DNA of 62,845 nucleotides, the filler included, from Collodictyon triciliatum (taxonomy: Eukaryota): the NCBI GenBank assembly GCA_043381765.1. It is 14 parts of 14 records of this genome, joined end to end, with 100 filler letters (N's around TTAATTAATTAA, not from the genome) between each part and the next. Parts side by side here need not be neighbours in the genome. Positions count along the whole stretch, not along the records: positions 27,002 to 31,398 come from JBHJMP010006147.1; 13 more parts are not named here. The stretch is one strand, 5' to 3'. This document shows, in pieces, positions 4,503-31,398 of the stretch. Position numbers and translations under genes: made by a program. Below the pieces are notes generated by a model, which saw only the letters and a list, made by a program, of their open reading frames with translations, was not told the DNA's origin and did not search any database. Each line of letters starts with the position of its first letter. The stretch's first letter is position 1.

Positions 4503-4722
4503 TTTCCATTACATTTTCCATTACATTTTCCATTACATTTTCCATTACATTTTCCATTACCTATTCCATTACCTATTCCATTACCTATTCCATTACCTAT
4601 TCCATTACCTATTCCATTACCTATTCCATTACCTATTCCATTACCTATTCCATTACCTATTCCATTACCTTTTCCATTACCTTTTCCATTACCTTTTCCA
4701 TTATCTTTTTCATTACCTTTTC
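4503..4722. repeat. 12-mer minisatellite (TTCCATTACMTW)n
   Basis: About 18 tandem units with three sequential variants. Confidence 0.9.
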
Positions 4723-4774
4723 CTTTTCGTATTTATTATGAAGTTTTCTTTTACTCTCACTGCCCCGACAACAG

Positions 4775-5426
4775 ATATCTTCGTGGCGAATCCGCGGCAA
4801 AGTCCCATTTCCGATCGAATCCACCGCAACATTTATCGATTTGTTCCAGAAAGACAATGGAAGCAAGAATCCTTTTGATACCCAAACAAAGCGGCTCTAT
4901 TATAGCATGGCCTTGACTAGGTACCAAAAAAAAAAAAAAAAGCATAAAAAATGACATCAACAGAAAATAAAAGCATTTTAAAAAAGAAACATTAAACACA
5001 ACCACAATAAAAAAAAAAGGGTAGATCTACGATATTCTGTGGACGGAAATACAGAAGATTTATAATAGTTAGCATGCCAATAAATACACAGGGTTACTCT
5101 GTAGCCTTTTTGCTGAATTACTACGGTATATTGTGTAATTACATTACAGGTTTGTCAACTTTGTTGTCGATGTGCTCCAACAAGGACGATTTGCTCTTTC
5201 TATAAGTGTATTGGCAGACAAACTCGGACTCCCACAAGTTTTTGTCGACCTGCGTCATGATGCTACGCACGGAGAGCTTCCATCCTTACAATTACTTCGT
5301 TACGCCTCAGAAAAAGTATGTTTCGAGACTGTTTAGCTTTCATTTTAGTGTCGAAGATATCATCTCCCGCTTCATCTTTCTTTGTTCATTTATATATGTT
5401 TTGCTTCGTTCTTTCTGTTGTTCTTT

Positions 5427-5522
<96 letters not shown>

Positions 5523-7746
5523 AAGAGCTGAAACTATTTGTTTAACACTATAAACCACCTTAATTTGCATTTTCTTTGTCCTCAAAGGCAATACTTTGGT
5601 TACAAGAAAATTACTGGGACAAACAAGGACAAATATTAGAAAATCTTTCCAATAAAATTCGCCACCAGCTGACTTTGTACATCGAAAACTTGAAGGGAAT
5701 CGAATCATTTAATCGTAATTAATACTTCACAAAGGAAAGAGAAAAAAATGGGTCAACCTTTGCATCAATTAAGCAACTTTGATGGCAGTATTTCCCAAAA
5801 TGACAATATTCTAAATCTGCATCTAGAGCAACTATTGGAGGCTTGTCTGAACGAAATCCATTCCAACATATCATCCAACGGCGTTCGCGATTTGCTTATA
5901 CCAATTATTTTACAAGAATACATCTTCATAGGGTTCGTGACACCGCATTTCTATCGATTATACTACCAGTTTAATTATTATCTCCTTTCTTTCCTAATGC
6001 ATAAATTTAGATAAGGATATTTATGCTTCGAATGAAAATGATTTTAAACTATATATATGATTATGTATCCACACGACTCATGAATACCATTCTGTTCTTC
6101 TCCTGTCTTAGTGATTATAACTCATCACGTGCTATTGGATGGAAGATATCAAAATGGACACCTTTGATCCGGAAGTTTTGCGTATTCTGGCCTTACTTCT
6201 CAAACTACTTTATTTCATCAATTATCGATTCGATGAAATATACAGGTTCTTTCGATGAGCTCAGCAACAACCAAAAATTAGTAAGCAAAAGAAATGCATA
6301 CATGAAAGCTAAAGTTGAATACTTTTTTTTCTATTCATTCGAGAAAAGTATATATATACCAGATTTTAATTTCCAAGTCAATATCGCTTATTTTATTTCT
6401 CCAGAATGTCGAGCTCTCTTACAAACTGGTGGAGTTGGTCTTATCTGGACAAAGTGGAAACTCTAAGGGGAAAATAGTCAATCAAACAACGTTACACTTT
6501 TCTGACCTAGTGGAAGTTATTCTGAAATACCCGACTCCTTGGTTTAACTTATGTCTATATTGAATTTTTGACGAGTGTACATAGGATACTGTTATATATA
6601 CTCTACCTCTCGATGTATCCATATTTAGGTGCTGTAAAACAACCTACAGGTCTTCTGATTTGATTAGCCTGATTAATTCGAGGCACTATCCAATGCCAGA
6701 AAAACTCTTTAAGTTTATGAAGGCTTTGTTGAACTTTCCAGAGTCTTTTTCACTTCCTATCAGCCAGGCACCAAGTTTGTTAATATTTTTCTGGCTTTGC
6801 ATGTAGTATTTATACTTTTCATAATTATGGTCCTAATTCCGTACATGGTAAACTCGTCTCCCAGAAATAGCCATTAATCCGCAGGAAATGCTTTCTGATA
6901 TTGAAAAGGTCAAATCCAGAATTCTCGCGCAGGTATGCGGTCTGTATATCTATTGGTCCCTGCTAAAGTTGTTGCATTAAATGCTATTTTTTTTGACAAG
7001 TGATATAGACTAATTCGTTTCATGTAGCGCTTATTTTTCTTTGTAAAACTTGCCATGAGTAAGCACCAACCTTAAATCCAAAACAATATCGTTCAGAGAG
7101 AAGATTCAACAAAGAGCGACTCACATGAAAAACCTCGGTGGACTGCGCAAAAAAACTGGCCCCATTTTGCTCTTGGTTTGCTACCTGACGGGTCGCTGCC
7201 TTCTCTCGAGCTTCCAGATTTTTACAGAGATATTACGGAAGGTGAGCGAGTTAGCTTCTTATCTCCTCTGTGCTTACACTAATCATAACACACAAACATG
7301 AATCCGATGAGTTTATTTATTTTGGTTGAATTCTCCCTCTTAAGAAAAGAATTCAAGCCCTTTTTTTTGTCAAAGAACAACCATGATTGAACGATTCTAT
7401 ATTTTTGTCCTTGGTGTACGCATATTTTATTCTGTTGTTCTTCAAGGACATCCTTTGGGCTACTCTATTTACGAAAACTCTGATGATGAGAAATGCGCCA
7501 CTGAAAAAGCAGAGCCCGAGATAGATATCAGAACTAACCAAGAAACTAGGTGAGCACACAAAATAATATGACCAAGAATTATGTAATGACATTTGTGTGA
7601 TACACTCTGTGATACAAAATTGATATAGCGCAAAGCCAGATGTTGCTAGTTGTCAGCCTGATGAGCTAGAACCCGTCCCTAGGAAAAGACAACGAAAGCT
7701 AGTGGAAATCGACCACAGCAAACTTGGAGTTTTCCATTTTCAATGA
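4775..7746 (+). CDS. LAS1: Las1 HEPN endoribonuclease (pre-rRNA ITS2 processing), 5' partial, multi-exon
   Basis: Exons give [17 protein letters not shown]...[61 protein letters not shown]...[13 protein letters not shown], including the HEPN RxxxxH motif RHDATH. C-terminal [12 protein letters not shown]. Stop TGA at 7744-7746. A (CT)n tract lies in an intron at 5431-5520. Confidence 0.9.
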
Positions 7747-7913
7747 TAAAATGACACCTTTTCATCAAAAAAAGAAGTCTGACATATTCTGTCTGTTCAA
7801 AGTCGAATATCGACTGCATTTCTATTGCCATGAAATGAAGGATACATAAACAATTATTTTTAGTTACCTTCTTATCGAGTCACCCATCATTAATTTAATC
7901 AAATCATATCACG

Positions 7914-8905
7914 TTGTCAAGTGAGGACATTAGTTGTTTTCTGTGTCGGAAAGTATTTTTGAATGGGGTCGAGCAAATCGTTTACAGCAAGAACAAGGCC
8001 CGCAGGCCCACAGATGCACTCGCCTCCTTCTTGAAAGCGAACAAACTTTGGGAAGAGTCCATCCAATTGCACTTACCGGACAGAAAAGGCCTTTGCCTGA
8101 TTGCCTTCCGCACTGCAGAAAACGCCCGAAAGCTTCTGGAGCTGAAGCAGGTAAGTTTGATAGATGTTATGATCAGCTTCTGCAGAAGTAAACCAACAGA
8201 GACCTCGGTGATGCTCTACCAACTACCGCTGGACGTGTGGCCGCAACTCCTTCGCGAGGAGCTGAAGCCGTTCAGACCAACCCACGTGGAGATAAAAAAG
8301 GACAAAGGCTTCTTCACAGACACGGCCGTGGTGAAGCTTCTTTTTCACAATAACCAGCTCCCTGCAAAGTTTACGGTCATGGGCAAAAAGTGTCTAAAGC
8401 GCATCCTCAAAGAGCGTCCGCCAGCCGCGAACAACAAACGACAAGTAAAAGCCCCGCAAAAGAATACACCTGCCAGGCAGACAAGCAGCAACGAGGTCAA
8501 GGAAGCCAAGGCCAGGCAACAACAGAATCCGCAAGACTCGCAGCAGATACGCGCATACAGCGACAGCGACGATGACATGGAAGGAAATCTCGGTTCCTCT
8601 TCAGAATCCCCGCACTCGAGCCCTCCACCGCCAACACCGGACAAGCCCGCACATCGCAAGACCCAAGAGCAGCGCATCTCCCAACCCCGAAAGAAATCCC
8701 CCCTTAAACTACCCATTCAGACTGACGTGAATATGGTCAACATAGGAGGCCTCAAGGTAATCTTCGTTACTTATCCGAAAGGATACTCCAAAGCGAAGGC
8801 AACACAAGAACCAGCGCCCACCAAAGATAGTCCGTTTATGCTGCCCCAGCCCGTCGCACCGAGAACCAAGGAGCAAGAGCAAACAGCACAAGTCGAATCC
8901 AAGCT
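7914..8905 (+). mobile_element. Probable ORF1 (RRM-type) of a Tx1/L1-like non-LTR retrotransposon, cut by the contig end
   Basis: Intronless GC-richer ORF with no ATG at its start. TSVMLYQLPLDVWPQLLREELKPF...KGFFTDTAVVKL...LPAKFTVMG resembles the tandem-RRM ORF1 pattern, followed by a disordered Pro/Ser/Lys-rich tail. No CCHC knuckle seen. Confidence 0.55.
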
Positions 8906-23665: not shown

Positions 23666-24421
23666 TCAATTAAGCAGGTAGTCGATGGAATGTTTGCGCT
23701 TCTGCCTGGTTGCGGACTCGTCGGCTTTCTGCGCAGGAGGCGGGTGCTCGGAACTCTTGCCAGGTTGAGCGGCGGAATCCACGAACGGCGGGGAAAAAGC
23801 CCGGGCCGTCAGCTTTGGCAGCCTTGGCGGACGAGGTAGCGGGTCATCGGCAGGGACAAAGCGGGGTGAGATGTGATGCTTGTTGACCTGGGCCATGCGG
23901 AAGAGCCAGCGTGTGCGGCATTGGATGTCAGTCCGGTCGCCCAGAAGGCGGGCAACTTTGACCCACGCGCAGTCGCCAAACGAGCGAACTCCGTCTTCAA
24001 GGATGCGGTCCTCTTCAGCGCTCCAGACACCTTTCTTGATGTTTGGATTCAAAACTCGTGCAAAGCGTTGGGCACACTGCTTGGCCGACTTTCTAGCTTG
24101 CGGGCCGTCTCGGACCTCTGTGTCGGGCATGATTTGGCGGCTGTGATTCGTCTGCGGTTGTGGAGGCGTCTCTGATTGTGATGATATCTGTGATTGTGAT
24201 TGCGACGGAATGGGTGATTGGGCGCCAACAGCATTGACTCGCTGTGCAACTTCGCTCCAACGCCGGCCTACCAAGCCGCCCTCGATGATTTCTTGGTCCT
24301 GCTCTTTGCTCCAGTTGGACTGCGCCTTGCGGAACTCGATTGTCTGCTGCGATGTTACGTGCGCGTCTGAGGGCGTCAAAAGGACAATCTGCATACTCCT
24401 TTTCTTGTTGTCGCTGCTCAT
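23666..24421 (-). CDS. Myb-domain transcription factor (two repeats), intronless
   Basis: WSKEQD...RWSEVA...RKSAKQCAQRFARVLNPNIKKGVWSAEEDRIL...WVKVARLLGDRTDIQCRTRW; complete from ATG to stop. Confidence 0.92.
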   Translation of the reverse strand: MSSDNKKRSMQIVLLTPSDAHVTSQQTIEFRKAQSNWSKEQDQEIIEGGLVGRRWSEVAQRVNAVGAQSPIPSQSQSQISSQSETPPQPQTNHSRQIMPDTEVRDGPQARKSAKQCAQRFARVLNPNIKKGVWSAEEDRILEDGVRSFGDCAWVKVARLLGDRTDIQCRTRWLFRMAQVNKHHISPRFVPADDPLPRPPRLPKLTARAFSPPFVDSAAQPGKSSEHPPPAQKADESATRQKRKHSIDYLLN

Positions 24422-27017
24422 CGCTGCTGTCTGTCTCTATCTCTCGTGCCTTCAGTGCTTTCTGCCGTGTGTGCCCTTGTGTCTATGCGTCTGTGTGTAT
24501 GCGTTGTGGTTTTTGTGAAAGAAGGCAAAGTGGTGAGGTTTGCGACTATGTGTGGATCGAGAACATTGATATGTTCGGATTATACAGAGTAGAGTGAACG
24601 ATATCACATTTTTTCTTTTTCCTTTTTTTTTCTGGGTTGATTCAAATTGCTTTGTTTTCTGTGTTTTTAGTATATGGACGGGATTATCGTGTTTAAGTGT
24701 GGCACTCGGGCTCGTGTCATCAACAACGGTGGCTTCATCCACACGTCTGTGAGTGACATCGGCCGCAATCATTTCGATGCCTCGGGTTGTGATTTGGGTG
24801 GATTTTTTACCTATACATATGTTCTTATTTTCTTTCCTTTAGGATTAGCGAATAAATGGGTATTCCGTTTTCTCTCTTCTTCGGTGCAGGTGACCATCGT
24901 ATGATTCTGAAAAACTCTCGATCCTTTCGCTAGTCGAAGGGACAAGTCATGTGGTTGTGTGTGAAGTATTAATTGCACGGGAATATCGCGAGTAGGATGG
25001 GAGGTTGTGCAAGAGTTCATGCTTTCAATGGCTTAGGTAATTGCACTGGTCGGGTGTTGGTTGGCTGAGTCTTTGTGGGATATAGACCATAGGTAGGGTG
25101 GTTGAAGAAACCATACATGAAGCCCAGGACAGGCCGAACAATGACGCATCCTTTCACTCAGCTTCAAAATGAGTGTATCAATTAAAGATTATTAGGTTTG
25201 TAGAACTCCTTCACGAACGTACAAAAGATGATTACATAATTCCCCGACATTCTTTCTGGCATCGGAATGAGGCTATTGAGAGGCAAAGGCCAAGACAAAG
25301 GGGATTCCAAACAAAAGATAACCAGCCTTGTTTCTTGAGGAACGTGGGCGCTGGCGAACAAACAGAAGAATGACCAGATAGTGGCCTTCGTTGCCATGTG
25401 TTTCACCCGAGAGGACGGCGCTTTATGTTTGTCCAAGGCTATTTATTCCAGAATCACAAGCTCTGCAATATCTTATAATCACGCAGCGGGGAGGGAAGAA
25501 ATAAAACTAAGCTTCAATGATTGCGCGCAACTGCAGAAAACACAGAAATACATCCGAAACATGATTTGAATGGATTTGAACAGATGTGCCTGATAAAGAC
25601 GATGCAGACTATTTCGTGATTTCATTTGCCTCCCTCTTTTTCAATAGGTATTGTCCAATGCCAATTATCGCCGCCTGTGTTTCGAAACAATTAACACATT
25701 GCCACTCAGTTTATTCGTGGTTGAAACAAATAAATAAAAACCAAATAAAAAAATTCGGCCAAATAAGCAAGGTCGTCAATATGCACACTTTCTGGTGTGT
25801 TTCCAAATATTTTTCAAAGGGATTTTTTTCTATAAAACGAAGTTGTAAACACGCTTTGATTCCTTGGTTTGGGCGTGTGTCCTTCGACATATCAACCCAT
25901 CCCTCTTTGAAAACAAACATATATATCATTTTGCTCAATAAACAACGGATTCCGTGCGCCTTTTTTTTCTGCCTGATTTGATGAAATTATGCACCATTGT
26001 TTTGAAATTCTAAAAAGTGTTCAGACGATTGAAATATAGGAAGAGAGAGAAAAAACAAATAAAAGGGGTTCAGAAATAAAAACATCGAGAAATTGTTTGG
26101 CTGAAAAGCACAAAGGAACAAAGCTTTGATTGAAATTGCCGTGTTTTGGCAACGGGGTGCAGAAAGGAAAGTAAGGAAATAAGCACGAATGCAGCCGTTG
26201 AACTCGGAAAATCGGCAGAAGTGTGATGTCACGACGCACATCCTTGTCGTCACAGTGTCGTCACTATCGCACATTGTTGCCTGGCGATTCTGATAAGAGT
26301 AGCTTGCCCACCACACGGCTCCTTATATCAATTCCACATGTGTACCGGACGGCCAAATTCTTCCAGAAGTGGATTCATCTCAGCCTCTTTTGATATGTGG
26401 CAACTTTGGGGTTTCGATATTTGGAAACGAACTTATTTGGGCTTCTTGTGTATTTCCTGGCGTTGGCTTGTCGTCACTCAGACGTGCACGTGCGTAATGC
26501 TGTTTAGTCAAATACATCATATATTAATACAATACTTTATGAGTAATCAATATATTTGTACGTTTTTTCTTGATGTGTTGCTAATAAATTATATTTTATT
26601 ATATATTCCAGATTTATTATAAACTCTAAACACATATCAGATTCTCCTCGATCACAAGCCACGGGCACGATATCTGTATTGCGCTGCAAACCTACGAAAG
26701 ACACAACACGAAACAATAATAAAATGACAGCATAGTCGAATATACTATGATTTCTATTAAAAGGAAACCAAAAGAACTAATATCACTAGTATTACCAGCA
26801 GAACAAAATCAAAGTAAAAAAGTAAAAAAGTAAAAAAATAAAAAAGTAAAAAAGTAAAAAAGTAAAAAAGTAAAAAAGTAAAAAAGTAAAAAAGTAAAAA
26901 ANNNNNNNNNNNNNNNNNNNNNNNNNNNNNNNNNNNNNNNNNNNNTTAATTAATTAANNNNNNNNNNNNNNNNNNNNNNNNNNNNNNNNNNNNNNNNNNN
27001 NCATTATCATAATGTAG

Positions 27018-27441
27018 GCGCTGAATTTCACGACGCCCACCACGCATTCAAAACCTCCAATTACGCCTCCTCATTCACCTACTTGGACACGCTCTTCGGC
27101 ACAGATGCCTCCTACCGCCGACGCAAGGAGAAGAGTGAATCAGAAAACAGCCAGGTTAGCTCATCAGGGTCTTCCATATCTCTTAGTTACTAATATTCGC
27201 GCCCTTTATAATACCTACGGTGGGAATCCTATGCGCTGAAATATTATTTCTATGACAGACACAGTCCCAGGAATCTCCCTCTGTTGAGTCACCTGCCAAA
27301 TCCCCTGCCAAATCCCCTGCCAAATCCCCTGCCAAATCCCCTGCCAAATCCCCTGCAAAGTCACCTGCCAAATCTCCCTCAACTCCTGCAAGCGATGCCA
27401 AGAAGGCATCCAATCCCAGACGTAATAAAGTGATTCAATAG
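27018..27441 (+). CDS. 3' end of a sterol C4-methyl oxidase (SMO/ERG25 family) with a (SPAK)n tail
   Basis: Exon 27018-27153 gives (G)AEFHDAHHAFKTSNYASSFTYLDTLFGTD, the last His box plus the NY(S/A)S.F...D..FGT motif of SMO/ERG25. A phase-0 intron leads to exon 27259-27441, which ends in TAG. Confidence 0.8.
27289..27375 (+). repeat. Coding 12-bp tandem repeat (TCCCCTGCCAAA)n encoding (SPAK)7
   Basis: Seen directly, in frame with the SMO exon. Confidence 0.9.
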
Positions 27442-27497
27442 TAAAACAGACACATACTCTCATGTAGCTCTTCTTGACGAATAGTATTCTTGACATA

Positions 27498-27524
27498 ATA
27501 TCCCCCATTTATTCGATTCAAGGC
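27498..27524 (-). mobile_element. 27-nt retroelement 3'-end micro-insertion with 12-bp target-site duplication
   Basis: ATTCTTGACATA at 27486-27497 and 27525-27536 flanks the insert, which reads GCCTTGAATCGAATAAATGGGGGATAT on the minus strand and matches the element end at 57172-57192. Confidence 0.75.
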
Positions 27525-27656
27525 ATTCTTGACATATGATAAGGGTTTTTAGAGAGGAATCAAAACATACCAAGTACATACATAAGTTGGAACTGAATAC
27601 ACATATGTACACCGTAACGGTATTAGGAGAAATATTCCTGATATCCACTACCCTTC

Positions 27657-29640
27657 ATGAGTATGACCATCGCCTAATAAACCAAACAAAAGATTGGAAG
27701 ACAAGTGGCTTTCTAACCACACTGCTTTAATACAACGCAACTTAGAAACTGGACCCACTAAAAGCCCGAAGCCTACTCCCCCTCAAGAGAGTAAAGCTTC
27801 AATTGAGGCCAAGTCTGCGTGGGATGACTGGCTTCCAGAGGACCCGAGCAAGCGCCGGGCAGAGATCTTCTTCCTCTGGTACAGTATTGTCTGGATGTCC
27901 ATGGTGGCTGTTATCATCTTCACAAAGATTTATGATGTAAGGAAATAATGAATCATCGCAGTGGCGAATACCTGAATAGACAAATGAAAAATAAAAAAAG
28001 ACAAAGAAGAAACCAACACAGCTTTTTCTCAAACCTCGTACAAGTGTTGTTGCCTTGTCTAACTTTTTTTCTTCTAAATGGCTCTTCGACGCCAGAAAGT
28101 TGCCGACACAGGATACATGATGATTGGCATCGTTGTAGGGTTCCCTTGCGTTCTGATTCCAGTCTTTTTCCCTGGAGAGGTGCATTCTCTATTTACATTC
28201 ACCAGCAGCGCTTCTTTGCTGGCGCTGTTTACCGTCGATTTTTTTTTATTTATCTATAAAGAACAACAAAGGAAGAACTGAAAGCATAGCTGTAATCAGG
28301 AGGATAATCGATGTTTCCTTACCATTTTAAACAGGATGCCTCTATTCCATTCTGGGAACGGTACACAACCAAAGTATGCTGCCTGTCTCCAATACCTCCT
28401 TCAAATAAAAGTTCGCATAGAAACCTTACAGAACCAAGAAACACTGAATTTTAAATCTGTTTGTTTCTCTGTGTGTAGGCCAACATCTGGATATGGATTA
28501 TGAGTTTCATAGGGAATTATTTCTGGACCCATTACTTTTATGTCCTTCTGGGGGCCAAATATACCTTCCCAGCCTGGAGATTGAATAATGTAGGGTTATA
28601 TAGCTACCAATTAACTGTGATACAAATATCCATCCAATGATGCTACAACTTTAGTTTGAACTGACTATCTCACAACTAATCCGAAACTCTTCAATCGAAA
28701 ATAGGTGCCCTTTAATCTGTTCTTAATTACTCAGGTGGGTTCCATTACCGATTGAAAGATGTCCTTTTTTCTTCCGTGTTTCCTTTTCTTGGAGATTCTC
28801 TCCCAATATTATATCTATGAAGCGACCCACAATGCCATCAATTACACTTTTAAATCATTATTATACTCGCTATGCATAGTCGTACTTTTGCACGTATCAC
28901 ACCCTGTCCAACATGATTCTTCGCCGTTTCACGAAACTGTTTGCAACTCGTGGATTGCTGTGGAAAATCTCGTGCGGTATCTTGATTCTGGTACTATCCT
29001 ACATCATCGCATTTATGGAGACATTCACCATCCAAGGGGTAAGAACAATACTATATTTGAGCTATCCACCATTTTCATGAGCACTGTAAGCACACATATT
29101 CATATATAGAAGAAGATTGTCTTTTTACTGACAACGGGCAACATTTTAGTTCCCTTACTACGAGTTTGTCGACAGAGACGCCATGTACATCCTGGGTTCC
29201 GGATTTTATGCGATTTACTTTATCGTCAGCTTCCCGATGTACTGGAGGTGGGTGATTCTTCTCTCCAACTTTATGATGCAAATATCCAGTGTTATTCCAC
29301 TTAATTCCGATATAAAAAAGAAGAGAGAAATAAAGCATAAGACCGTGCGTTCATCTCAGTAGCGCAAAGCTTCTTCTAAAGATAGCATCCCTACGTACTA
29401 AATGCCACCTCATTTTTAATATACATTTCGGTGTCTGGTTGCTAATATCACAATTGAAAAAAAAAAAAAAGGATGGATGAAGACCCGACACAGCCAAAGT
29501 GGTCGCTCTGGCAATGCACACAGAATTCTTTCGCTGCCTGCATGATTGTCACTCTGCTTTTAGATGCCTGGAAGCTAGTGGCTGGGCCGATCTTTGCCAG
29601 CGGAAACAGGGATTTTTCTAATACAGTCCCGTTTATCTAA
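27657..29640 (+). CDS. CPI1: Cycloeucalenol cycloisomerase (cyclopropyl isomerase); start uncertain
   Basis: Exons give WLPEDPSKRRAEIFFLWYSIVW...PFWERYTTK|ANIWIWIMSFIGNYFWTHYFYVLLGAKYTFPAWRLNN|VP...IAFMETFTI...FPYYEFVDRDAMYILGSGFYAIYFIVSFPMYWR|MDED...ACMIVTLLLDAWKL. Stop TAA at 29638-29640. The first large exon starts at acceptor 27745|27746 with no in-frame ATG. Confidence 0.93.
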
Positions 29641-29949
29641 ACCATCACCTCGAATACTAGCGGGTCTTCCGAAAACAAAAACAAACGAACATCTGAACAA
29701 AAGCGAATTCAACAACGTTTGGAGTGAAAAGGAGTGTGTTTCCAAAGAACACGGACATATCCTTCTCTGTTACTCCTTAGCACAAAATACAATAAAAATT
29801 TCAATAAAGGAAAACAAGAACAAAAAAAAAAAGAAGTAAAATGAACAAGATAAACCCAACAAGTAACCAAAGCCATCTATTCTCTTATGAGCCCAATAAT
29901 TCATGGTTTCATTCTGTTGGTTGTACTCTTGATATTTATTCCACACAAA

Positions 29950-31250
29950 CTATTGAGACCTAGACGATACCCTACCCGGCCACTGGTGGTTGGATTCTAA
30001 TAGACACACATGGATCAATTGTAACAATTTTTATTTCCTCCCCACAGCTACAAGGTCTTTCAGGAAAGCGTCCGAATCTAGTTTGGTAGATTCTATTTAA
30101 TCATCTACCGTTATTCAAATCGAAGGTGGTGATGACGTTTCAGAGACGAAACCGCTGCCGAATGAGAGGGATATAGCTCTAATGAAGAGGGTATCCAAAC
30201 CTGGTCTTCCAGTGCTGATATGATGCTCTGGGTTTCGTGGATAAGTGCCTGTGAATGTGGATACAAAAGATACATGGTGAATAGCACATACACATATGTA
30301 TACATGAATTCGCTGAGACAAGTGGTATGTATTCGTCTGTTGATTAGCGTTTCTGTAGGTCTCTTGAATGGAATAATGATGATTGTTGAGCAAGAGAAAA
30401 TCAGAATGATGTACTTTGTTTTCAGTTTTTCGGTCAATCTCAAACTTTTCATAATGGCGTTCTTTTGACTCTTTGACTGCTTGGCTGGGATGGATGCTTT
30501 TGTGTTCCTTATGGGCCTGAATTCGGTCCCGTCGTAGTTTATCAAAATCTCGCTGGAAAAGCTCCATGTTCACTTCTTTTATAAACATATCCTTTTTGTA
30601 CCTATCGGAGGGTACATTTCTCTTAATATATATTTTTCGTTTCAATTTTCATTTCCTATTAATGAAAAGTTTTCAATGTCCGAGTAAAGCACACCATCAA
30701 AACTAGCATAAGGTCTTTCCTTATTTTTCTTTCCCCTCTTTATTCGATTCAAAGTGAAAATGTAAGAGAAACGTAAGGGTTTTCATTATCCGTTTCCAAT
30801 TGCTTTAACTGTACTTTTAAAGCCTTTATGACAATTCAAATATTGTATAAATAAACCTACAATCTTGCTCTGTACTGATTCCGTTCATTCTCTGCGATTT
30901 TGAATTCCCAGCGATACGGAAGGGTCAAACCACGGCAAAAGTCTGATTTACACCGTTCGATGTTTCAGTTGGTTTTCATTTTTGAAAAAAAAAAAAAAAA
31001 GGAAAAGAAGGAGGTAGGACAAAGTGTGATGGAATCTTCAAGGTATATTTTCTGAGTAAAGCATATGAAATTTGTCTTAACCTTACATATACAATTTGAG
31101 TGGATTTATTTTTACCATTTGCAAGACGCACTTTTTCTATGCAATTGGCTTCATATAGATTCTTTTCAATCAAGTTTGTCTCATCAAAATATTTTCTGCC
31201 GTTGATGTCATGAAGTGGTTTTGTAGGGCTTTGATTTAAGTGAATGTTTG
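29950..31250 (-). CDS. Unidentified multi-exon protein (partial; exon structure uncertain)
   Basis: Open Lys/Glu-rich frames (about 30420-30655 and 31087-31250) bounded by GT/AG. No family recognised. Confidence 0.4.
30725..30771 (-). mobile_element. Older retroelement 3'-end micro-insertion with a decayed TSD
   Basis: Minus strand reads CACTTTGAATCGAATAAAGAGGGGAAAGAAAA. Flanks 30707-30724 and 30772-30789 match at 14/18 positions. Confidence 0.55.
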
Positions 31251-31280
31251 TTATTGCATTATAGCTGCACGAGATTACTA

Positions 31281-31398
31281 ATGTATGTATGTATGTATGT
31301 ATGTATGTATGTATGTATGTATGTATGTATGTATGTATGTATGTATGTATGTATGTATGTATGTATGTATGTATGTATGTATGTATGTATGTATGTAT
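31281..31398. repeat. (ATGT)n microsatellite (same motif at 41535-41647, 46883-46978, 49476-49578)
   Basis: Seen directly. Confidence 0.95.

Follow-up and report, generated by a model that had tools for sequence, protein, structure and literature searches.

Evidence for a fused SMO-CPI1 sterol gene lying head to head with CYP51 in Collodictyon triciliatum

We analysed a locus of Collodictyon triciliatum (Eukaryota; assembly GCA_043381765.1) in which coding sequence for a sterol C4-methyl oxidase (SMO) stands directly upstream of coding sequence for the cycloeucalenol cycloisomerase CPI1, at positions 27018-29640 of a 62,845-nt stretch of DNA (hereafter, the window). The locus is real and expressed, and it probably constitutes one fused SMO-CPI1 gene, placed in a three-enzyme sterol module with the sterol 14α-demethylase gene CYP51. 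The fusion and the SMO/CPI1/CYP51 arrangement appear to be new; both of the fused enzymes are already known. A preliminary description, made from the window alone, had suggested either a clustering of sterol genes or a spliced SMO-CPI1 fusion. The fusion was favoured by our data, the junction 27421|27746 being present in RNA contigs of two of the four runs used, and clustering was found as well, CYP51 being the divergent neighbour of SMO-CPI1 on contig C771.

Results

RNA evidence for the fusion junction

The RNA data were four metatranscriptome runs (X1-X4) out of 13 on record, all in the form of assembled contigs, which were taken as presence evidence only; for an RNA joint to count as bridged, at least 31 letters were required on the far side. 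The SMO part of the window (plus strand) comprises exon 7 (27018..27154; Pfam, gene model, and RNA), which carries the last His box (HDAHH) and the end of the oxidase domain (aa 303-348), and exon 8 (27259..27421), a Ser/Pro/Ala/Lys linker with (SPAK)7 at 27289-27372 that was read in DNA and RNA contigs. Intron 7 between them (27155..27258; 104 nt, phase 0) has its GT..AG joint in X1, X2, and X4, and in X3 via the letters between. Upstream of exon 7, the RNA contigs run on into exon 6 of contig C771 in all four runs, and the SMO contigs are therefore spliced cDNAs. The His-box exon, the (SPAK)7 repeat, and an in-frame TAG (27439-27441) past exon 8 stand where the preliminary description had placed them, as does the phase-1 acceptor AG|27746 of the next exon with its TTCTAAC (27711-27717); the first in-frame Met of that exon is at 27895, inside the first membrane helix.

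The intron that would lead from SMO to CPI1 (27422..27745; plus strand, 324 nt, phase 1, GT..AG) was supported by loose ends of RNA contigs in X1 and X3, which are two samples of one study. In X1 record 1, which is 681 nt long, exons 6, 7, and 8 are spliced together. The X1 loose end past 27418 consists of 3 letters to 27421, 14 letters from 27746 onward, and then Illumina adapter; that of X3 is built in the same way, with 9 letters from 27746 onward before the adapter. The SMO contigs of both samples skip 27422 onward and join exactly on GT..AG with the frame kept, at the junction for which a check in RNA had been proposed beforehand. The two fragment ends differ and therefore come from different molecules, and the 14- and 9-letter junction words are each unique in the window. 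A template-switch origin of the junction was rejected, with both copies of the 4-nt word common to the donor and acceptor exons being present. In X2, the SMO contig stops within the repeat. RNA cover was zero at 27522-27729 and almost zero at 27418-27521 in all four runs, which was not used against SMO-only or stand-alone CPI1 forms, and the greater contig depth of SMO than of CPI1 in three runs was not used for ranking the two halves.

The second haplotype and the splice signals

The window is composed of 14 contigs of ~4.4 kb strung together via N-linkers, adjoining contigs being unrelated. The locus contig, C6147 (window 27002-31398), starts inside an SMO intron and is preceded by an artificial N-linker (26902..27001), and the sequence left of 27002 is no genomic neighbour of it. 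In a DNA search, C771 proved to hold a second copy (93% identity over query bases 3-755) that ends 11 nt into the CPI1 exon; C6147 and C771 differ by 4-7% in their overlap. SMO exons 1-6 were found only on C771 (plus strand, ATG at C771:7849) and the CPI1 exons only on C6147, each once in the assembly. Since the SMO and the CPI1 exons are each single-copy, the two contigs are best read as overlapping alleles of one locus. The fusion donor, the TAG, and the acceptor are all present in C771, which has TTG where the window has ATG at 27657; the X1 junction contig carries C771 alleles. The linker is variable in length, with (SPAK)7 in the window and (SPAK)5 in C771, and in-frame linker deletions of 24 nt (X1) and 48 nt (X4) were found in RNA contigs.

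Splice donors were scored with a matrix trained on the 14 other introns of the gene, and the range was taken from leave-one-out scores (0.67-7.98). The fusion donor scored 4.29 in the window and 3.12 in C771. Two phase-1 donors had been named as able to feed the first large CPI1 exon, C|GT at 27421|27422 and ATGA|GT at 27657-27661 (85-nt intron); both are present, and a third option had been overlooked, namely ATG 27536 or 27605 with a donor at 27705, which occurs in both haplotypes and requires a 41-nt intron with a branch-like motif 6 nt from the donor. The mini-exon ATGA (27657..27660; plus strand), the putative stand-alone CPI1 start, has a donor score of 0.12, under all 14 leave-one-out scores. 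With this score and the TTG of the second haplotype, ATG 27657 is probably not a genuine CPI1 start, and the separate CPI1 gene suggested from it is improbable.

Gene model

C771 exons 1-8 joined to window exons 9-16 gave a model of 16 exons and 687 aa (695 aa if the longer repeat allele of the window is used) with no internal stop, in which SMO (~aa 1-340) is followed by an 84-aa stretch rich in S/P/K/A and then by CPI1. Exon 9 (27746..27936; homology and RNA contigs of X1 and X3) encodes the linker end and CPI1 helix 1 (aa 395-458), and the intron after it (27937-28095) is backed by loose ends in X2 and X3. The remaining CPI1 exons, likewise on the plus strand, are exon 10 (28096..28179; homology), joined across 28180-28334 in X2 to exon 11 (28335..28373), which is joined across 28374-28478 in X1, X2, and X3 to exon 12 (28479..28589), the most conserved block among homologues; exon 13 (28705..28734; 30 nt), reached across 28590-28704 in X1 and X2 and left across 28735-28879 in X2; exon 14 (28880..29038; homology), with a joint 29039-29149 in all four runs; exon 15 (29150..29247; homology), with a joint 29248-29471 in X1 and X3; and the last exon (29472..29640; homology), which includes the stop at 29640 and past which RNA contigs extend to 29704-29752. 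All seven internal CPI1 introns have RNA support, six of them by joints.

Two further kinds of RNA contig were observed over CPI1. In one X2 contig, the donor is shifted 3' by 4 nt (window 29248-29252), giving a 220-nt intron with which the frame of the last exon would shift. X1 and X3 also hold extra CPI1 contigs (window 28488-29245) that are ~15% divergent with identical intron positions, i.e. from a related species in these samples.

The CPI1 half

Full-length homologues, some of them named cycloeucalenol cycloisomerases, can be aligned with the CPI1 exons at 44-53% identity over 255-290 aa. In the search with exon 12, 50 of 52 candidates had E<=0.001 and were 58-85% identical, several of them being named cycloeucalenol cycloisomerase; all 50 are <=323 aa long. 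This locus is the sole CPI1 found in the assembly, and of the 18 columns that are invariant or nearly so among 67 aligned sequences it keeps all. An AlphaFold2 model of the homologue P0032 (67 sequences; predicted local distance difference test score 91.5) has seven long helices, which were mapped here by alignment. The CPI1 N-terminus is predicted to face the side with more K and R residues (10 vs 6 at this locus; two homologues have 12 vs 5 and 11 vs 3), and the modelled topology is consistent with a cytosolic linker. The His boxes of SMO are expected on that side of the membrane too, the cytosolic one. A fold search with the CPI1 model gave no clear match, the best being an Insig homologue (Z 6.0, root-mean-square deviation 3.7, 134 aligned); the second-best row was also an Insig (Z 5.3), at scores too low for meaning.

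The SMO half

The model contains three His boxes, HFILH at 210, HSVHH at 227, and HDAHH at 307. Pfam FA_hydroxylase matched exon 7 alone with E 2.4e-4, below the curated cut-off, and PF04116 matched single exons with E 6e-7 and 3.2e-5, each slightly short of the whole-protein cut-off. The fused SMO aligns over ~215 aa with two paralogues of the genome and with the SMO of a dinoflagellate protein described below (P0053), having common HPxE, HxGY, and NYAS-type blocks. The paralogues are SMO-like genes at C851:16150-17690 (36% identical to the fused SMO), which terminates directly after the oxidase domain, and at C926:~26100-27690 (28%). The search for SMO homologues returned none of 710 candidates at E<=1e-20 and no named SMO, with a short profile (64 positions) and too strict a threshold; Atlas searches gave only generic matches under 0.9. 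The motifs LGIPT and LRQxxAIETH of the fused SMO are, as we take it, closer to plant SMO1 than to SMO2. From this likeness and from the neighbouring genes, we infer that the fused oxidase would be an SMO1-like enzyme.

CYP51 and the other sterol genes

CYP51 lies head to head with SMO on C771 (6497-~3270, minus strand) and was assigned from Pfam, PDB matches, and motifs; its ATG (C771:6497) and that of SMO (C771:7849) are separated by 1,351 bp, and from an X4 contig the SMO 5' leader would be at least 238 nt long. One P450 exon matched Pfam p450 with E 1.5e-19, and its top PDB match was an obtusifoliol 14α-demethylase (E 2.6e-23), all of the top 21 PDB matches being sterol 14α-demethylases. 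AGQHTSS, ExxR, and heme-Cys exons are present, which we take to be motifs of the CYP51 type. No other close match to this gene was found in the assembly, in which a second P450 shares 42% identity with it.

Elsewhere in the genome, an intron-rich oxidosqualene cyclase (C380:4800-9200), unseen at E<=0.001 and recovered at looser thresholds, has HGWPISDCTAE, corresponding to H449/I453. As H449/I453 is the cycloartenol signature of cyclases in the accessible part of PMC2817430, the C380 cyclase would be of the cycloartenol type. Family matches were also found for ERG4/ERG24 (C890, C668) and for 3β-hydroxysteroid dehydrogenase (3β-HSD; C9220, C9665, C1080, C5147). The assembly amounts to 75.4 Mb in 14,576 contigs, and this fragmentation leaves room for wider linkage of sterol genes. 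3' of CPI1 there is a convergent spliced gene (~29900-30650, minus strand) with RNA in X2 and X4 and three frames without Pfam match. Elsewhere in the window, positions 4503-8905 are one entire contig of the assembly, and a Myb-domain gene (23666-24436, minus strand; Pfam E 2.2e-18) is on a different contig and no true neighbour of the locus.

Other organisms

When the CPI1 profile was run against proteins of 567-2,000 aa, 10 of 3,648 candidates scored. One of the 10, P0053 (EukProt EP00747 Dinoflagellata sp. TGD P085894; 1,032 aa), contains FA_hydroxylase (204-335), 3Beta_HSD (386-665), and CPI1 (765-1019), in which the domain order is the pathway order; note that it is an unannotated transcript product, a single-member cluster from one transcriptome. 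Thus the search for proteins with FA_hydroxylase plus CPI1, proposed in the preliminary description, did return one protein, in a different architecture, and none of the 32 CPI1 representatives that were scanned (the longest or latest-starting of the 150 listed; 1,533 at E<=0.001) has FA_hydroxylase. Three others, P0056, P0057, and P0058, are ~800-aa metagenome proteins with heme oxygenase plus CPI1 that fall into a single clade of the CPI1 tree; the remaining six long CPI1 proteins have other domains or none. A metagenome scan gave one locus from 323 matches, with a distant CPI1 and no SMO-like frame, by eye, in the 612 nt upstream, and a scan of bacterial genomes confirmed none of 76 pattern matches as relatives. 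The SMO-CPI1 fusion is rare within the searched proteins.

The CPI1 tree was reconstructed from 101 sequences with at least 225 aligned residues, shorter matches being dropped. The CPI1 of the locus is sister to that of P0053, with a support of 0.0, and its wider group contains sequences of a chytrid, of Bonamia, and of further contigs. P0053 CPI1 is the best BLAST match to the CPI1 of the locus in the searched protein set (53%). The chytrid Powellomyces hirtus has a full-length CPI1 homologue (P0070; KAI8917850.1); CPI1 in a fungus is unexpected if fungi use the lanosterol route. P0053 resembles this locus in having SMO N-terminal and CPI1 C-terminal in one chain, and differs in the 3β-HSD between them, in place of which the locus has a low-complexity linker. 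The soluble 3β-HSD directly before CPI1 in P0053 is likewise compatible with a cytosolic linker. The P0053 SMO is 28-33% identical to the fused SMO (33% in one comparison) and 36% to the C851 paralogue. It seems more likely that the two fusions arose independently.

Discussion

Comparison with known sterol routes

The product of CPI1 is obtusifoliol. In the accessible parts of the respective papers, plant SMO1 is described as acting on 4,4-dimethyl-9β,19-cyclopropyl sterols, in complex with a decarboxylase, a ketoreductase, and ERG28 (PMC6385002, PMC8172173), cycloeucalenol as a substrate of CPI1 (PMC7794993), and the plant order as SMO1, CPI1, and CYP51 (PMC12167035). The locus shares its enzyme families with plant SMO1, CPI1 (At5g50375), and CYP51, along with the cycloartenol-type cyclase elsewhere in the genome; it differs in that the plant enzymes are, as far as the available sources go, separate proteins from separate loci, whereas here SMO and CPI1 are in one frame with CYP51 as the divergent neighbour. 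Homologues of ERG25, ERG26, CYP51, and CPI1 are described from myxobacteria in the accessible parts of PMC2817430 and PMC8237579; in contrast to the bacterial CPI1 homologues, this locus is intron-rich and fused. As for a natural SMO-CPI1 fusion, of which none had been known to the preliminary description, or a eukaryotic SMO/CPI1/CYP51 locus, no report was found in the accessible text of open-licence papers.

Proposed function of the fusion

We propose that the 16-exon gene, transcribed divergently from CYP51, would encode a bifunctional membrane enzyme of the endoplasmic reticulum with an N-terminal SMO, a flexible linker of ~84 aa, and a seven-helix CPI1. On the plant model, the substrate of the SMO half would be a 4,4-dimethyl-9β,19-cyclopropyl sterol, and with O2 and cytochrome b5 the enzyme would convert one of the C4 methyls into the acid. 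A 3β-HSD/decarboxylase and a ketoreductase, both encoded by separate genes, would complete the demethylation and yield a cycloeucalenol-type sterol, whose cyclopropane ring would be opened by the tethered CPI1; the CYP51 encoded by the neighbouring gene would then remove the methyl at C14. With the two enzymes fused, their ratio would be set at 1:1 and CPI1 would be held at the complex for the first C4 demethylation; the head-to-head arrangement might in addition allow co-regulation of the step that follows, that of CYP51. Since the locus would thus supply reactions 1, 4, and 5 of this segment, with the two between performed in trans, the tether would co-locate the enzymes and not hand the product over directly; co-location with fixed stoichiometry is the benefit that we infer in preference to direct hand-over. 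The P0053 chain would add the second reaction of the segment.

Alternative explanations

Several observations weigh against one fused gene. The full 687-aa model combines contigs of two haplotypes, the fusion intron is the longest of the gene (324 nt, the other 14 introns being 91-224 nt), and the CPI1-side letters at the junction (14 and 9) are below the 31-letter criterion for a bridge. The junction evidence is confined to one study and to two of the four runs, it is found only on contigs with A at 27419 (the C771 allele; the window has G), and no listed RNA contig of the four runs spans SMO through the CPI1 stop. No close relative with a two-domain SMO-CPI1 protein was found in the searched sets. 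The shortness and single origin of the junction evidence would suit two adjacent genes, SMO ending at 27441 and CPI1 having its own promoter, with the junction as rare read-through splicing, and so would the window allele, which from ATG 27657 encodes a complete CPI1 of 294 aa in 9 exons, a length usual for the family, as well as ATG 27536/27605 and donor 27705, which both haplotypes keep. We regard this arrangement as improbable, however: ATG 27657 is lost from C771 and its donor is the poor one noted above, the alternative start depends on the very short intron with the branch-like motif close to its donor, and in X1 and X3 it is the assembled SMO contig that runs across the junction. Still more improbable, to the point that we give it hardly any weight, is an assembly artefact or a mosaic of paralogues. 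The assembly is fragmented, and parts of the gene lie on two contigs with differences in their overlap; nevertheless, C6147 and C771 were each assembled with SMO next to CPI1, the exons on either side occur in a single copy, and cDNA contigs of other samples cross identical splice sites.

Another possibility, compatible with a fused gene and carrying a modest minority of our belief, is that the fusion is conditional, with the donor at 27422 competing with the overlapping poly(A) signal so that the locus yields the fusion as well as an SMO-only protein of 400 aa. The element in question, AATAAA (27424-27429) overlapping the donor plus the in-frame TAG (27424..27441, plus strand), is kept in both haplotypes and may be the end of such an SMO-only isoform (size as in C771), or may be plain intron sequence. 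A 1,397-nt SMO contig of X4 extends three letters beyond 27418 and thereby breaks off at or near the donor, as it would at a branch in the assembly graph; however, these final three letters are not displayed, and the end may be due to chance. Moreover, AATAAA is common in introns of this gene (three occurrences in 1,978 nt of the 14 other introns), and the number of codons read through to the first stop ranges from 1 to 97 over the 15 introns and is <=6 in four of them, including the fusion intron, so that the TAG six codons past the fusion donor is ordinary. Finally, the fusion may be real with an oxidase that is not SMO1-like or with a chain that is cut in the linker, in which case the tether would have little to do with the supply of cycloeucalenol. 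The three SMO-like proteins of the genome are mutually only 28-36% identical, which speaks against the SMO1 role, and the P0053 SMO is no nearer to the fused SMO than to the C851 paralogue. We consider this unlikely, though, given the presumed motif likeness to plant SMO1 and the neighbours CPI1 and CYP51, whose steps come after SMO1 in the plant pathway, as far as PMC12167035 is accessible. One fused SMO-CPI1 gene is therefore retained as the probable explanation.

Implications

The locus would be a small cluster of sterol genes that belong to core and not to specialised metabolism, whose enzymes are known and whose chemistry is not new. Automatic annotation would likely divide the fused gene in two. 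The fusion hints at which of the three SMO-like genes is responsible for the first demethylation in a lineage outside plants, and by the Rosetta-stone argument it would place the action of CPI1 at the C4-demethylation complex. It would also fix the membrane side of the CPI1 N-terminus and would offer a natural construct for tests of co-location and channelling. More tentatively, and as a proposal that we hold at less than even odds, the first C4-demethylation complex and CPI1 may form a physical module of the cycloartenol route that has been genetically fixed more than once in unrelated eukaryotes (as SMO-CPI1, with a divergent promoter shared with CYP51, and as SMO-3βHSD-CPI1 in a dinoflagellate), with a tether that, in C. 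triciliatum, may be switchable by means of the poly(A) signal at the fusion donor.

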